DNA from: Amoeboaphelidium protococcarum X5
Taxonomy: Eukaryota > Fungi > Aphelidiomycota
Assembly (NCBI GenBank): GCA_023515725.1
Contig: JALDTO010000156.1
Location: forward strand, 63,182 to 127,181
Direction of reading: 5' to 3'
DNA: 64,000 nucleotides
Below are positions 52,765 to 64,000 of the stretch, one piece after another (within the stretch, counting starts at the first letter, position 1; each line of letters opens with the position of its first letter). The notes beneath the pieces are model-generated. The model did not search any database and had not been told where the DNA came from. It was given only the letters and a program-made list of their open reading frames with translations. The position numbers and the translations under genes are program-made.

Positions 52765-53457
52765 ATGTTTAAAATTCGTAGACTGTCCAACATGTCGGAG
52801 TTAGTAACTTTAAATGATCCAGTCAGAATATTTAACAGCTGGTTTGACACGCATAAGAAGGGGTTTCCTAAGGAGTCAAAATATGCCTACAATGCCGCTC
52901 AATTGGCAACGTGCGGCGCCGATATGATGCCATCAGTGAGAACGGTACTCATCAATTGGACCAAGGAGACTGAAGATCGCGGTCTAGTACTTACAACGTT
53001 TTCATATTATTGCAGCAACAAGGGAAAAGATATTGAAGAAAATAGTAACGTGGCTCTTTGTTTCTATTGGGGTGATAGACAAGTTAGAATACAGGGCACG
53101 GCTTAGAAGTGCTCAGATCAAGTAAATGACGATTACTTTTACTCACGCTCCTTGTCCAGTTAAATCAATGCTCATGCCAAAATGCAGTCTCTACCGCTAG
53201 AAGATCGCTCATAGTTTGAGGATAAAGTTTAAAGCTTGGAATAGAAGTTTGCTGGTGGATAGGTTCCACGTCCAGAGTATTGGGGAGGATATGATATCAC
53301 GGCAACGTCTTTTGACTTTTGGGAGAAGGCTGGAAGATTGGATGATAGATTTCAGTTCATTTTAACAAAGAATAATGAGTGGTGTAAATAAAGATTATAT
53401 CCATAAATAGAGATATTGATTCATTTCACAATACATTACAATAAAAGTGCATAGTGA
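52765..53457 (+). CDS. PDX3: Pyridoxamine 5'-phosphate oxidase
   Basis: LATC...PSVRTVL, SNKGKDI, RQVRIQG, YFYSR, PRPEYWGGY, DRFQF, RLYP. The canonical end is followed by TAA (53404-53406); first TGA at 53455-53457. Confidence 0.9.
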
Positions 53458-53458
53458 A

Positions 53459-53474
53459 GGTGTTTAAAAACACC
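53459..53474 (-). terminator. Histone mRNA 3' stem-loop (H3 copy 1)
   Basis: GGTGTT-TTTA-AACACC ~40 nt after the stop. Confidence 0.8.
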
Positions 53475-53514
53475 ATTTTACATTCAATAAATGAGATGAA
53501 AAGACTCAGAGAGT

Positions 53515-54640
<1,126 letters not shown>

Positions 54641-54675
54641 ATACTCTCACTGAGATGTTTCTATTATCGCACAAT

Positions 54676-54691
54676 GGTGTTTTTAAACACC
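54676..54691 (+). terminator. Histone mRNA 3' stem-loop (H4 copy 1)
   Basis: GGTGTT-TTTA-AACACC 35 nt after the stop. Confidence 0.8.
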
Positions 54692-54752
54692 TTCAAATGT
54701 TCAGCTCTATTAAGTGAGTTATTTTGAAAATTACATTTACTATTATATTATT

Positions 54753-57336: not shown

Positions 57337-60183
57337 TCAAAATTCATACCACTTCTTTTCTGCCTATTATCGATTGTACTCCCTGGCTCTTGCAAGAAAA
57401 TCCTCAGAACTAGTGGCAAGATTGGCAAATTTACTTTCTAGATTCTATAATCTCTCTCCGCGTTCATTTAAAGCGTTCTAAGCGTTAGCAAATGCATTGT
57501 CTCCACGTACTTGCGTCTCCGATTCGGGATCGATTGGTGGTAGCTCCTTATCACGTGTTTATCTACTTATTACAGAATCGTTGGTAAAGTTTGGAGGAAA
57601 ATCTACAATGGCAAATTACAATAATATAGCAGTGCCGGATATTAAAACTTACAGTGATCTATTAGAAGCTTGACTTGATCTGACCATTGAGAGTCATTGA
57701 CCACATCATCTCCTTTGAAAGCTCTTTTCATAGTCTCCATTAAAGATGTCTTCTTATCCGGAACGACTCTATTAGGAAATGTAATCAAAGGATCGTGATA
57801 TTAAGCGACAGGCTGGCTTCTTGATGCGAATGACGGAATAACTTGTAGAGCATCATACAGCGCAAAAAATCGACCATCCTTGCACGCCGACAACAAGCCA
57901 TTAGATTGAAACTCAAATTCACATCCTCTACACATTGCTAGTATAATCACGCGATTTAAATCCCGTTAATCGAGTTGAATAATCTTACCTCAGCCGTTGA
58001 TCTAGTTAGGAAACTACGGCAGACTATTAAATTTAAAGCTCCCAGCAAATCAGTCGAAGTTTATCGGTCAATATCAACAATACATCAAGATTATTAATAT
58101 GATACACTCTAGCATGAGAGCATTACTCATTTTCGTGTAATTGAAGAGATTGTTCAAGGAGTAAATCGCCAGTTATAGAGTTACACAGTTAAAACTAGGT
58201 ACAACTGATCAGTGCTAGTACGGCAGTATTTTTATCCAGTGAACTTTTACTCTTCTTGCTCATAGACTTTTAATCAGGCTTGGAGTAATGCTGTAATATC
58301 TCACACGATTGCCATTAATGTCCAGCATCAGCACTAATGATTACTTCACAAGTATAGCAATTATCAAGATCGTCACCTCTGCTAATCTTAAGAACAGATC
58401 CGTCAGAGCATGTGCATATCACTATTATTGAACCAGTATCATTGGATTAACAACAGCTGGTTATGGACACGTTCTCAGACGGAAGTCTACCAACGTACAA
58501 AACTTCTAATGAAGTCAAATAAATTAAACTTATCACAGCGTCATCACTTTAAGAAAAGAAGTGACCATCAATTAACCAACAGCGAGTGAGATTTTACTAT
58601 CCTTCCATCTAGTGAACTTTTATAGCAATAACTGATTTGACTCCAAACGCATCAATTGTCGGTGATTCCACATTCACAATCTCAATCTGACTTTTAGATA
58701 AATTGACAGTCTGTAAAGCATTAAGATCAAAGCAGTTGATCAAGAATATAGTTCCATCCTCATGTACAGATATGATCCCAGACCCAAAAGGATACAATTG
58801 TGTAAGTCGCCCGCTATCAGACAGCGTACATTTTAGACTCTGATTGAGCAATAGAGACCCAGATGCAGTATTCTCATACAAATAGCAACTAAGTATTCCT
58901 GACGCAGTTCCCAGACATATTCGAACATTAAACACCTCAGAGGCATCAGCATCAATATCAACAGATGGTAAACTTGACGCGCTAATACATGAGCAAGTCA
59001 CGTCTTGCGTATTTAAAATCTATTGTAGACCAGATTAGTTCTGAAAGGACTCAAACTTAGCAGCATTAAAGTCAAATTGCAACAAATTCTCTGCTCGCGT
59101 AAGGGATATTAAAGCAGGCGGAGATTTTTCTAACGCGTAATTAGCACCGAGAGTAAAGAGGCCCACCGCACTTAAAGATTCAGTTAATTCAATGGTCTAC
59201 TCCTTTCTAACCATTTTGAAGTCTTTATCAAATGTCTTTACCTTCAAAATCTGATTCTAACTCTATTAACAGACAGACCACATGATTAAAGAGTATCGGT
59301 CATCTGAATCAACAGGCAACCACCATACGTTAGTCAGAATTTAATTTCCAGTACCATTAGAAGGAGCTACTACATCCGATTCCCATAATACAGAGTTGGC
59401 ATTCCGAGATGAGATGATTCGAATGAGAGAATTGGAATACACGCAACAAAGGTAACGTCCGTCATTTGTCAAAGCACAGTCTACCAAGCTACAGTTCTCT
59501 TACTTGCAGATAAAAGTGCAAAGAGCAGCCTTTGAGTTTAAGTCAAAGGACACAATACCACCGTGGGAGTAGGCGACGAATATTATACTCGCAAAATGAG
59601 GATGACATAGAATCTTCAAAACTGACTCCGGCGTTTCCACCAAGCATGGCACTTGATAAACAGAACTAATAGAACCATTATCGCCATTCATGACCACGAC
59701 ACTTCCGCTCACAGTACCCAAGAGCACCAGCGGAGACTTTGGCGCCAGTTCAATGCACGTAATCTTGTCTGTAACATCACATTGTTCATAATCAGGTATC
59801 TGCTTTATCAAGTTCCAACCAATCACTTCATTGTCAGTGTTGATGGATATGAGCAATCCTTGATTCTATTAGAATTTTAAAAACTTTATCGCAGATCCAG
59901 AAGATTGAGCATCGTTGGTGTATGCTGATAAGTAAGTGTAATCGCCATCCTTATTAATGAGTAGAATTTCACCTTTAAAAGTTCCTAAAGCCAGAACGTT
60001 CTAGCAGCAATCGTAATCAAAGCAGGTTATAGCTGATAGGAGACCCAATCTAAGCAGTTCCACAAGCTCAAATTGCCGAATGACGCTCAGATTCTCCTCT
60101 TAGATATTCACAGAGCCATTTGAAGTCTTATGCTTATCCACTACCCCTGCAGCCAACTTCTTTAATTTCTTAACGATGCCCAT
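57337..60183 (-). CDS. Tomosyn/Sro7/Lgl-family WD40 protein with C-terminal R-SNARE
   Basis: FDYDCCQNVLALGT N-terminal motif, WD-like repeats, ALNERGERLQNLESK...AEKKWYEF; 948 aa. Confidence 0.9.
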
Positions 60184-60318
60184 TGTTGCTCATGTATAAG
60201 GCAATGTTTAGAAATACTGAAACTAAAGAAAAGAATGTAAAGCTACAACCGTACAGTACTGTAAGATGAACAAGTAATATATTCAAATAAACTCACTTAA
60301 TAGAGCTGTACATTTGAA

Positions 60319-60334
60319 GGTGTTTAAAAACACC
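60319..60334 (-). terminator. Histone mRNA 3' stem-loop (H4 copy 2)
   Basis: Same 16-mer as in the other histone genes. Confidence 0.8.
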
Positions 60335-60368
60335 ATTGTGCGATAATGAAAAATCGTAGTGAGAGTTT

Positions 60369-60848
<480 letters not shown>

Positions 60849-61086
60849 TCAAGCCTCACGGAAAACACGACGGTGGCCGCGCTGTTTGAGGCTTCTGAAA
60901 CGAAAAGTGGAACTGGCACGGCTAAAACGCTCGCTTCGTCTGTTTGGAATGAACCACCACGGACGGAAAGTGTCTCAAGCGATAAAAGCCGCCCGTCGCC
61001 TCGTCCGTTTCTCTTCTCCTCTTTGCAGTTTTTGTTATTACAATAATCCTTTTACTTACTCGCACAAATCCTAAAGACATTTCAAG

Positions 61087-61494
<408 letters not shown>

Positions 61495-61534
61495 ACTCTT
61501 TGAGTCTTTTTATCTCATTTATTGAATGTAAAAT

Positions 61535-61550
61535 GGTGTTTTTAAACACC
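61535..61550 (+). terminator. Histone mRNA 3' stem-loop (H3 copy 2)
   Basis: GGTGTT-TTTA-AACACC 40 nt after the stop. Confidence 0.8.
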
Positions 61551-61672
61551 TTCACTATGCACTATTATTGTAATGTATTGTGAAATGAAATATTATGTGC
61601 TCATTTGGACACTGTTCTAGAGTTATAGAACATGTTGTTAAAGCTGGGCACTAGAGTAAATGTCTTTATCTA

Positions 61673-61726
61673 TGACTCAGTCCGATAGTCAGTTTGTATA
61701 TACAAACTGACTATCGGACTGAGTCA
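61673..61726. repeat. Perfect 54-bp palindrome
   Basis: tgactcagtccgatagtcagtttgtat|atacaaactgactatcggactgagtca; 27-bp arms, no spacer. Confidence 0.97.
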
Positions 61727-62192
61727 GTCTACAAAAAAAATAACATTTACTCAATTTTATTTTTTCAAAAGCTCAATTAAAAATAAAAATAATCGCGGGT
61801 TTTTAAAATGTTAAGAATCTCAAAACCACCCTCCACCAACCAAAATTTTCATTCTTTAAAAATATAAAAAAACAAGTTTATAAAAAAAAAAAAAGAAGTA
61901 ATAGTTTTGATTTTATACTATATAATATTTTGGTTGGTTTGGTTGGTTTAGTTGGTTGTTAAAATATTAAAGTATTAAAGGAGAAAAAAGTTCCTACTAC
62001 ACCTTTCACTTCCGGGGAAATGATTTTTAGTAGCCCCCAACCAAAAAAAAAACCTCCAAGTAAACCAACCAAACTTTTAAGGAGTAAAATACTACTACTA
62101 CACCTTTCATTCACAGTAATAAAAAAAGCCCCGCAGTAAATTTACTACGGGTTTGTCATTGTGTTGAGGTTGGTGTGGGTTGTGTTATTGTG

Positions 62193-64000
62193 TCATTGTG
62201 TTTACTAAAATTGTATTTCTATAAGCCTCACTCCATTTGTTGTTCGTGTTATTTTGGTATTAATACCTTTTACTTTGCTCATCTTTCTAAAAAACCAACC
62301 ACGTTCTTCAACTTTGTATTTCAAATTGTAAGTTTTGATATATGACTCGTAAAAATCGTAAAGTTGTGCCTTGGTCATTTTCAATGTCTGGTTTTAATTG
62401 TCCATTGAACTAATCAAATCTTATCTTTACTTCTCGTCAATTTAATCTCCATACATACAGCTATTCAACATCTCTACAAATTCCGTCTTGAGACTATGAA
62501 AAAACTTTGATACACTTGTGCTTTCAATCTAAACTTCTTCCTTTTCAGTAGTATTAAAACACTGTCTTGGATTAAAACTTGTTGTGTCATAATTGTATAG
62601 ATAACTAAACACTTTTTATTAGTAGTCTTCAGCTTGTATCTTTTCAATCCTTTCACTAAGTTATTCTTTTGTTAAAATTTGGTCAACCTTAAACACATTA
62701 AAACGTCTATCGCTTTGTTCGATTCTAACAGGCAAGTATTCGTTACTAGTAATTACAAAGTTATTCAGATTATTGGTTCTAAATATCTGTTTACCTTTAC
62801 TTTCAATACTCATACGTGGATTGGTAATAGCGTCCTTTAAAGTCTAATTGAATCCCTTATGACCGGCTGATATTTCTTCCAAGAGTATCAGTAGTTTCTA
62901 GTCCCTCGTATCATTAAACCGTGAAAAAACAGATTCCATATTACTTGTCTAGTAAAAGAATTGAGGTAGAAGTTTTTCTCCAATATATTGACTCACACAA
63001 GATTTACCAGTTCCTTGAGTATCGGAAAACAGTATGATACAAGTCTCATTTTTATTACCTTTACATACGTTGGCGTACCATTTCATTAAAAACTCAAATC
63101 TTTCTTAATCACCTTGAGCTTAGTTCATTACAAGGTCAATGAATTCTTGAATCTCACTTGAATTTACTTGTAAATTAGTAGGATGTGTAAATCCTGGAAA
63201 AGTATTGATTTCGTTATCTTTTAAAAGCTGTTGATTTGGTTGAAACACTCTATCCTTTTACTTTATAATCATCTTGTTTCTAAGTTGTTGGTAAAATTTA
63301 TCACAATTTACTAAATGTTCAAACACCTAAGAATCTTCATTCACTTCTTTGTAAAATTTGGATTTTGTCAAAAAAGAATTGAGATAACCTTATTCTGAGT
63401 CTTCAATCCAAAAGGCGTCATCGTTCTTGTAGAATAAGATACCTCCACTAATACAAAATCTATCGCCATAAAGTTCTATGAATTTGTCTGCCATTTTGAA
63501 AAAGTTATACTCTTTCTCTTCGTTCTACTCTTCTTCATTGTAGTCCCTGAAACTGTGTTCAAAAGGCTTTATCTTGAGTTCAAGATATTTCAAGTCGTAT
63601 ATTTCACTGATTTTCTTAACTACACTCTAAATGTCAGCTTACAACTACTCTTCCGTTTTCTTGTGTTTGTCTACTAAAAATCCGTCATGAATCAAGACGT
63701 CTACATTGTAGTGTAAGGCTGTAAACTCTTCTTGTAATTTCATCAACAATTTTCTTTCATAGTGATTTACTACGCTTGAAAACTTGGTCAAGTTTGATTC
63801 TTCTTTATATTTTCTAGTAATGAATTTGAATTGTTGGAAGTTTACAATGGAATTTCTAATATTGTCAACCTCACTTTTAAAGTCTTTCAAACAACTAAAA
63901 TCTCCCTCAATCTCCTCATTTCCCTTTAAACTCATACCGTTTAATACTCCAAGTATAGCAGCTTTACACTAGTACGGTTCCAAATGTTAATTGTCATCTT
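62193..64000 (-). CDS. TVpol-like (family-A-related) polymerase/primase fused to SF3 (D5/DUF5906-like) helicase, 5'-partial
   Basis: ~600 codons open in code 6. KAAILGVLNG...NHYERKLL...VLIHDGFLV...LKIKPF, then INTFPGF, FLMKWYA, Walker A SDTQGTGKS, SRFN, Walker B LILLEE, ITSN, SDRRF, and a wHTH-like tail. Confidence 0.85.

Follow-up and report, generated by a model that had tools for sequence, protein, structure and literature searches.

A TVpol-SF3 helicase gene in the TAR=Gln code at one end of a probable endogenous virophage or Polinton-like virus of Amoeboaphelidium protococcarum

The window (the whole stretch of 64,000 nt that was analysed here) comes from Amoeboaphelidium protococcarum, an alga-parasitising relative of fungi, and runs at its right-hand side into a long frame crowded with TAA and TAG codons. 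This locus raises the question of whether the frame belongs to the host or is the intact replication gene of a resident virus-like element, recoded to the code of the host as proposed in the first-pass annotation, and to which kind of element such a gene would belong.

Host genes, reading frame and genetic code

Translated with table 6, seven out of ten host ORFs of the window are identical to NCBI nr entries (e.g. KAI3649121.1 and KAI3641330.1), and the named members of the 90% clusters for those ORFs are all from Amoeboaphelidium protococcarum. This is in agreement with the fungus-related host suggested earlier. A. protococcarum reads TAA and TAG (TAR) as Gln, while the aphelid Paraphelidium keeps the standard code (PMC6299283). 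A histone gene close to the element illustrates this code, and the flanking H4 gene is likewise found exactly in NCBI nr with table 6.

61087..61494, plus strand: host histone H3 gene, outside the element; three in-frame TAG read as Gln; table-6 translation exact in NCBI nr

The four histone genes of the window (two H3, two H4) share an identical 23-nt 3' stem-loop at 60315-60337, 61532-61554, 53455-53477 and 54673-54695. Three of these four stem-loops gave weak matches to RF00032, the Rfam family of histone 3' UTR stem-loops (about 18 bits against a gathering score of 34), suggesting a putative divergent histone stem-loop in an aphelid. The genes are organised in two head-to-head H3/H4 cassettes, 53420-54731 and 60279-61589, which are mutually inverted and 96.7% identical over 1314 nt. 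Two host genes are enclosed between the cassettes, and the element is inserted about 85 nt past the second one. Over 58000-60300, run X2 contains a pair of host haplotypes that diverge by 8-13% and are equally deep. Together with the several A. protococcarum members in most clusters of host proteins, this fits a hybrid or duplicated host genome.

The frame under study is read on the opposite strand, towards the histone genes.

62193..63998, minus strand: TVpol(PolA-type)-SF3 helicase fusion gene, 3' 601 codons; TAR=Gln; TGA stop, 16 nt inside the boundary of the terminal inverted repeat described below

With table 6 the frame contains no TGA, 14 TAA and 10 TAG, and its 5' end is open at the window edge, so that the earlier description of some 600 codons with about two dozen TAA/TAG and no TGA was accurate. 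About 13 TGA would be expected from base composition (P of none about 2e-6), and the other five frames over the same stretch have 9-33. With table 11, the longest open stretch of the frame is 107 codons. The GC content of the gene is 31%, against 40% in the host part of the window (1-61672). TAR makes up 24 of the 47 Gln codons of the element and 433 of the 728 in 11 long host ORFs (9,171 codons, introns unchecked; Fisher p 0.29), and use of the host's code, as previously claimed, is borne out by this comparison. The homolog alignment is too variable at the TAR columns to establish Gln from the element alone; TAR is read as Gln in the element gene, a reading that rests on the host code.

In the alignment, K12 of the window protein pairs with K156 of the 718-aa homolog P0007, and therefore about 145 N-terminal codons, including the first catalytic Asp, lie beyond 64000. 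The word 'intact' used earlier for the gene holds for the 601 visible codons and does not extend to these further ones.

Near-identical proteins are also present in environmental data, namely P0006 (96% identity), P0047 (100%) and P0248 (89%), all of them short and predicted with table 11. All three fragments stop exactly before TAR codons (118, 446 and 460), and because the table-11 calls end there, the recoding appears to be common to wild relatives. Three environmental studies contain pieces of the ORF at about 90-99% identity, and the runs X5 and X6 among them also contain host DNA at similar low depth. Public contigs differ from the window at 104 positions, of which 40 were displayed, a tool-chosen subset that stems mainly from low-depth contigs of run X7. 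Within this subset, 33 differences are inside the ORF, 24 of them at third codon positions, and 21 out of 29 changed codons are synonymous, one being TAG>TAA at codon 490. This pattern points to probable purifying selection on the ORF. Judged from its codons, the gene would be expressed in TAR=Gln cells and could not be expressed in a standard-code cell. No RNA run was found among the 12 runs listed as matching the window, which has no bearing on expression.

Domains and family of the replication gene

The protein encoded by the visible 601 codons possesses polymerase-like motifs upstream of a helicase core.

63936..63968, minus strand: motif B-like fingers helix; K12 kept, Pro where Arg is usual
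63672..63704, minus strand: motif C-like palm strand VDVLIHDGFLV (D105, G106); conserved in 48 aligned rows; aligns with PolA QVHDE, not significantly
62703..63029, minus strand: SF3 helicase core (NrS-1-like, DUF5906) with Walker A, Walker B, motif C and Arg finger; supported by PF19263, PDB 6k9c and a fold match
63681-63695, minus strand: LIHDG
63000-63014, minus strand: GTGKS
62874-62885, minus strand: LLEE
62742-62753, minus strand: ITSN
62700-62711, minus strand: DRRF

The four helicase motifs of the first-pass annotation were all found, with GTGKS exactly where it had been placed; for LIHDG the motif and its start were right, and its end is 63695 instead of 63697. PF19263 matches residues 324-432 (E 3.3e-17), and the NrS-1 helicase PDB 6k9c matches residues 281-446 (E 2.9e-14). 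The predicted model aligns with 6k9c over 354 residues (Z 25.2, rmsd 9.9), extending to residue 597. This model was built from an alignment and has a pLDDT of 79.5, with residues 149-246 below 50; the single-sequence fold (pLDDT 35) was unusable.

In the polymerase-like part, G106 is invariant and D105 nearly invariant across the 48-row alignment. The full-library search revealed 10,903 relatives of the window protein at E <= 0.001. Many of the best 150 are 690-810 aa long and have GR, DxDxxNxHP, R..aK...yG and hDG in PolA order in their N-terminal half; the hairpin Arg, motif A Asp, R..aK and hDG likewise follow PolA order in the homologs, and the hairpin Arg, the thumb and the motif A Asp are present in the closest ones, P0007 and P0008. 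A profile made from homolog N-termini (25 of 30 rows, the query and four rows with a primase-type N-terminus being left out) matches query residues 9-144 with 72 bits and E 3.8e-22 against 174 proteins, a result that is partly circular because the homologs were collected using the window protein itself. When the family profile was compared with E. coli PolA and T7 gp5, four motifs were in register at an hhalign probability of 0.7% and E 0.085, which is not significant, and the PolA match in hmmsearch was no better than 400 shuffles. The search with polymerase profiles suggested beforehand was thus positive for the profile of homologs and not significant for the solved PolA enzymes. At the Arg position of motif B the window protein has Pro, as does P0017, and this Arg also varies in P0007 and P0037.

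Foldseek against BFVD placed the Qinghai Lake virophage helicase/primase/polymerase second, with a whole-length match (E 2.8e-21, 695 columns), and the Zamilon replication protein, also whole-length, at rank 36 (E 2.2e-11, 682 columns); many of the other top rows are unnamed or cover the helicase part only. PolA was absent from the PDB fold-match lists for the full model, which were filled by helicase matches, and Pfam, PHROGs and NCBIfam returned no polymerase family for the window protein (P0001). For P0007, DNA_pol_A is found in 21% of the members of the Atlas cluster that is the nearest named one (score 0.81), which serves as a lead only. The nearest relatives of the window protein are P0007 and P0008, two unnamed metagenomic proteins (SH-like support 100 in a FastTree of 53 rows, with long branches and skewed composition).

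TV-Pols are defined by PolA-type palm and fingers motifs, including hDG, RxxxK and motif A, by a hairpin Arg and a thumb, together with a helicase fusion (PMC2579912). The window protein possesses the hDG of motif C and the C-terminal fusion to a D5-like/SF3 helicase, and RxxxK is half matched, with K12 kept and Pro in place of Arg; the hairpin Arg, the thumb and motif A would fall beyond 64000. The PolA-order motifs of the homologs, the N-terminal profile, PF19263 and the virophage fold matches together support the identification of the gene as a TVpol-SF3 helicase fusion, as had been proposed.

We also searched for related loci in IMG/VR. The queries P0001, P0007, P0008 and P0072 revealed no locus extending the element, P0134 found two distant loci, and three DNA patterns had no match; P0001 and one pattern gave no match in metagenome contigs. 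These blank searches prove neither absence nor novelty. On the IMG/VR contig L001 (168-4654), a related polymerase-like domain is fused to a different, D5-type helicase, and an adjoining ORF has a packaging-ATPase-like P-loop (labels by eye). The L001 arrangement looks like helicase-domain swapping within the TVpol-SF3 family.

Element tip, insertion sites and copies

Behind the stop codon of the replication gene, the element ends in a palindrome and a putative terminal inverted repeat (TIR), which were not part of the first-pass annotation, nor was the evidence for a target-site duplication (TSD) given below.

61668..61672, plus strand: host target 5-mer ATCTA, just outside the element; predicted duplicate at the far end
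61673..61726, no strand: perfect palindrome at the element tip (TGACTCA...TGAGTCA); 54 bp, 27-nt arms, 100%, no loop; predicted fold-back primer
61720..61726, plus strand: end motif repeated on the inner side; junction of one flank, in place of 61673
61673..62176, no strand: TIR of about 504 bp, 30% GC; partner end outside the window

The boundary 61672/61673 was set by other host flanks joining there. The tip palindrome is the sole loop-less perfect palindrome with arms of at least 8 nt in the 64 kb, and the motif GACTGA[G/C]TCA occurs three times in the window, always at the element tip. Rfam returned only weak microRNA matches for the palindrome (E 0.06-0.7, far under the gathering score); a microRNA identity was rejected, these being generic hairpin matches.

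Contigs of runs X1 and X2 depart from the window sequence behind 62176 into one common other sequence of at least 255 nt, and contig depth is about 600-620 over 61673-62176 against 359 in the interior (about 1.7x). From this branching and rise in depth, we infer that 61673-62176 is a TIR whose far end lies outside the window; no partner was found within it. The interior of the TIR (61835-62151) contains a 34-nt direct repeat (61975 and 62076) and inverted repeats of the ACCAACCAAA type, and a small hairpin is present at 62130-62151, about 40 nt past the stop codon of the replication gene. These repeats and hairpins may be putative termination or origin signals. The 30 displayed letters of the loose end behind 62176 in X1 and X2 form an open frame with a TGA at the TIR boundary (by eye), and both terminal genes may point outward into the TIRs.

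Public contigs of eight of the 12 listed runs were aligned to the window, and flanks and differences were counted among the matches listed. Sample S1 (runs X1 and X2) has the best coverage and may be the window's own source, in which case it gives no independent support for the window. At least four distinct host flanks meet the element end in this sample.

Flank 1: the window's own, in the X1 contig 61534-61700, which matches without a difference at depth 117 (other host haplotype: 97)
Flank 2: before 61672, in an X2 contig
Flank 3: behind 61726, in an X1 contig; by the symmetry of the palindrome, the same tip
Flank 4: loose end before 61720, in one X2 contig

The contig of flank 1 contains 28 element letters, which is under the 31-letter bridging rule. 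The same 5-mer, CCCTG, adjoins both flank 3 and flank 4 in direct orientation, which would happen by chance in about 1/1000 of pairs, and this pair is likely a TSD, drawn from a single, presumed pairing of loose ends from two runs. Because the flanks are distinct, there are at least two insertions, and three if the flanks at 61726 and 61720 are the ends of a single copy. The 5-mers at the insertion sites (ATCTA, GAAGA and CCCTG) differ from each other. The inner junction at 61720, seen in one contig, could have arisen by deletion between 10-nt near-repeats at 61673 and 61720 or as an assembly effect of the palindrome.

In sample S7 (runs X10 and X11, same species label), two contigs per run leave the window sequence at 61669 and continue into other DNA, with ATCTA 7 nt later (by eye). 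This loose end is an empty site with a 9-nt indel beside the target. X10 and X11 do not cover the interior of the element, and the fraction of its words found in X10-X12 is 0.00, although contigs are no proof that it is absent. The 188 nt of TIR found at depth 3 in X8 (organism B) were not counted as evidence.

Two unitigs of the interior (1424 and 1534 nt) have 0 differences at 2.4-3.7x the depth of one host haplotype, against a divergence of 8-13% between the host haplotypes. These values hint at some three copies, young and identical, although depth is no measure of copy number. In X1, the 5' part of the gene also occurs in another, divergent form over 63850-64000 (depth 224 against 335), with five synonymous differences common to X7, and 17 differences were counted over 221 nt in a variant TIR contig of the same run. 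A mosaic copy, or a further family of related elements, is likely present in the same genome.

Residence in the genome together with mobility, as put forward earlier, agrees with the several host flanks and the site that is empty in S7. The copy and depth analysis recommended at the time gave the interior depth and empty site reported above, and a syntenic single-copy orthologue, considered then as an alternative, does not fit a site that is empty in another sample. The concern about misassembly at 61.6-61.8 kb is met in so far as a contig carries the junction and coincides with the joining point of the other flanks; this evidence comes from contigs.

Proposed mechanism, alternatives and known systems

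We consider it probable that the window contains one end of a mobile element that is present in several copies, is polymorphic in its insertion sites and has a TVpol-SF3 gene in the TAR=Gln code. The element is likely an endogenous virophage or Polinton-like virus (PLV), with capsid and integrase genes predicted further on, past the window edge. Membership in the virophages or PLVs would take a double-jelly-roll MCP, a minor capsid protein and an A32-like ATPase, and a virophage in the strict sense would also have a virophage-type MCP, a maturation protease and dependence on a giant virus. The element sequence in hand comprises 2.3 kb of one end, in which no capsid, ATPase or integrase gene was seen, and 'virus', 'intact' and priming by a hairpin are what we infer from it. 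An rve/DDE-type integrase, suggested by the TG...CA ends and by the unrelated 5-mer at each site, would join these ends to host DNA cut with a 5-bp stagger. A survey that associates PolA/AEP replicases with tyrosine recombinases, and DDE enzymes with pPolB, counts against this step (10.64898/2026.10.13.758929). After excision as a linear molecule, the 54-nt palindrome would fold back into a 3' primer, replacing the protein primer used by pPolB-type Polintons, because a PolA-type enzyme has no protein primer. The hexameric SF3 helicase would unwind ahead of the fused PolA-type domain. Each arm of the palindrome, outer and inner, carries the presumed integrase motif, so that an opened end could insert at 61673 and a closed hairpin end at 61720. 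For such palindromes in Halocafeteria, accidental annealing is given by the authors as an alternative origin (10.64898/2026.07.28.741278).

A bolder version is possible, if doubtful, namely that the element is a currently mobile rolling-hairpin DNA virus, or a capsid-less 'PolA Polinton', locked to TAR=Gln aphelids, with the junctions at 61673 and 61720 as snapshots of opened and closed hairpins. If so, the two junction types would document hairpin-primed replication in this group directly at the genome level. A capsid of virophage type would imply a still-unknown recoded giant virus of aphelids.

Less probable, and on balance unlikely, is a capsid-less self-synthesising transposon, or a PLV minus its structural genes, spreading within the recoded host lineage with TVpol-SF3, an integrase and palindromic TIRs. 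Every feature seen concerns replication or integration, TV-Pols were first described partly in replicative transposons (PMC2579912), and Halocafeteria has elements with TIRs and TSDs that lack structural genes (10.64898/2026.07.28.741278). Full equilibration with the host code fits long vertical residence, X5 and X6 contain host and element pieces at similar low depth, and IMG/VR gave no close relative. However, the named structural neighbours of the fusion include virophage proteins, the distant IMG/VR homolog L001 adjoins an ORF with a packaging-ATPase-like P-loop (by eye), and in TIR length and low GC the element is like complete PLVs, whose TIRs average 485 bp (10.64898/2026.07.28.741278).

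It is distinctly improbable that the element is a PLV integrating by a tyrosine recombinase or protelomerase-like enzyme, with the palindrome as a recombination or telomere-resolution site instead of a primer. Protelomerase targets also take the form of a loop-less palindrome of about 55 bp, which counts for this explanation. The correlation of PolA replicases with tyrosine recombinases (10.64898/2026.10.13.758929) does so too, and TSDs of 5-7 bp occur in elements with either enzyme (PMC7805220). Nevertheless, the targets differ per site, the ends are TG...CA, and the junctions are at the arms of the palindrome and not at its centre. It is very improbable that the locus is a host gene domesticated as a single copy, part of an inserted giant virus, or a contaminant joined on by misassembly: NrS-1-like SF3 helicases are found in giant viruses and phages, and the junction is known from contigs, but several flanks converge on one base, the site is empty in S7, the gene is written in the rare code of the host, and no difference was found in the junction contig, whose depth is that of one haplotype.

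An endogenous virophage or PLV at this locus would extend palindrome-tipped PolA-helicase endogenous viruses to an aphelid, and would be a case independent of Halocafeteria for hairpin priming by elements without a protein-primed polymerase. The host grows in culture with algae as its food, and with few near-identical copies and an empty site elsewhere, excision, end structure and capsid are directly testable. The code of the replication gene bears on host range and on the viruses of an algal-pond parasite. Since the code of Paraphelidium is the standard one (PMC6299283), adaptation of the element likely accompanied or followed the recoding of the host.

Among known systems, endogenous virophages (subtypes 1, 2, 5 and 6) and the PLV subtype 4 of Halocafeteria seosinensis have a palindrome at the TIR tip, where it borders on the TSD. 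Such palindromes occur together with non-pPolB replicases and RVE integrases, and hairpin priming has been put forward for them as a hypothesis (10.64898/2026.07.28.741278). Similar to these, the present element has a tip palindrome beside a likely TSD (54 nt here, 52 nt there), a TIR of about 0.5 kb, a GC content below that of the host and a visible non-pPolB replicase near one end, PolA-S3H being among theirs; a second gene, of pPolB type, may be present elsewhere in the element. It differs in its opisthokont host with TAR=Gln, in one junction at the inner arm of the palindrome, and in being known from 2.3 kb without the capsid and integrase region. By analogy, its workings would match those of the palindrome-tipped endogenous virophages and PLVs of Halocafeteria.

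The replication gene resembles those of Sputnik (V13), Zamilon and the Qinghai Lake virophage, which have PolA-type palm and fingers motifs and a C-terminal SF3 helicase in about 750 aa (PMC2579912). It differs from them in its 14-16% identity in fold alignments, its helicase of NrS-1/DUF5906 type and the replaced Arg of motif B. Mavericks/Polintons combine pPolB with an rve integrase, whereas the visible replicase here is of PolA type. In the mid-GC EMALEs of Cafeteria burkhardae, rve-INT is found together with a long primase/helicase, and these elements share with the present one the long primase/helicase gene at one end, TIRs, short TSDs (a likely one here) and strain-variable insertion sites (PMC8547959). 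Palindromes are not mentioned in that text, and the EMALE capsid is of Mavirus type, while the capsid region here is outside the window.

A survey of endogenous viral elements describes those of Streblomastix strix as using the host table with TAA/TAG as Gln, so that integrated virus-type genes in a host TAR=Gln code are a likeness to our locus; the host there is a metamonad, and the MCP group was seeded by Trichomonas (PMC10120064). This survey left out NCBI Fungi, where Amoeboaphelidium is filed, and its supplements do not contain the genus name. PLVs are also integrated in chytrid genomes such as Spizellomyces punctatus (PMC7805220, 10.64898/2026.06.19.733378), which like our locus are integrated PLV-type elements in early-diverging Holomycota. 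The difference lies in the aphelid host with its altered code. No report of an endogenous virus or Polinton in aphelids was found in the literature searched, most subscription journals being outside the search. Endogenous viruses recoded for a host with TAR=Gln are already in print, as are PLVs of early-diverging fungi, chytrids included, so that novelty was at first rated too high; what is new is the recoded aphelid host lineage.
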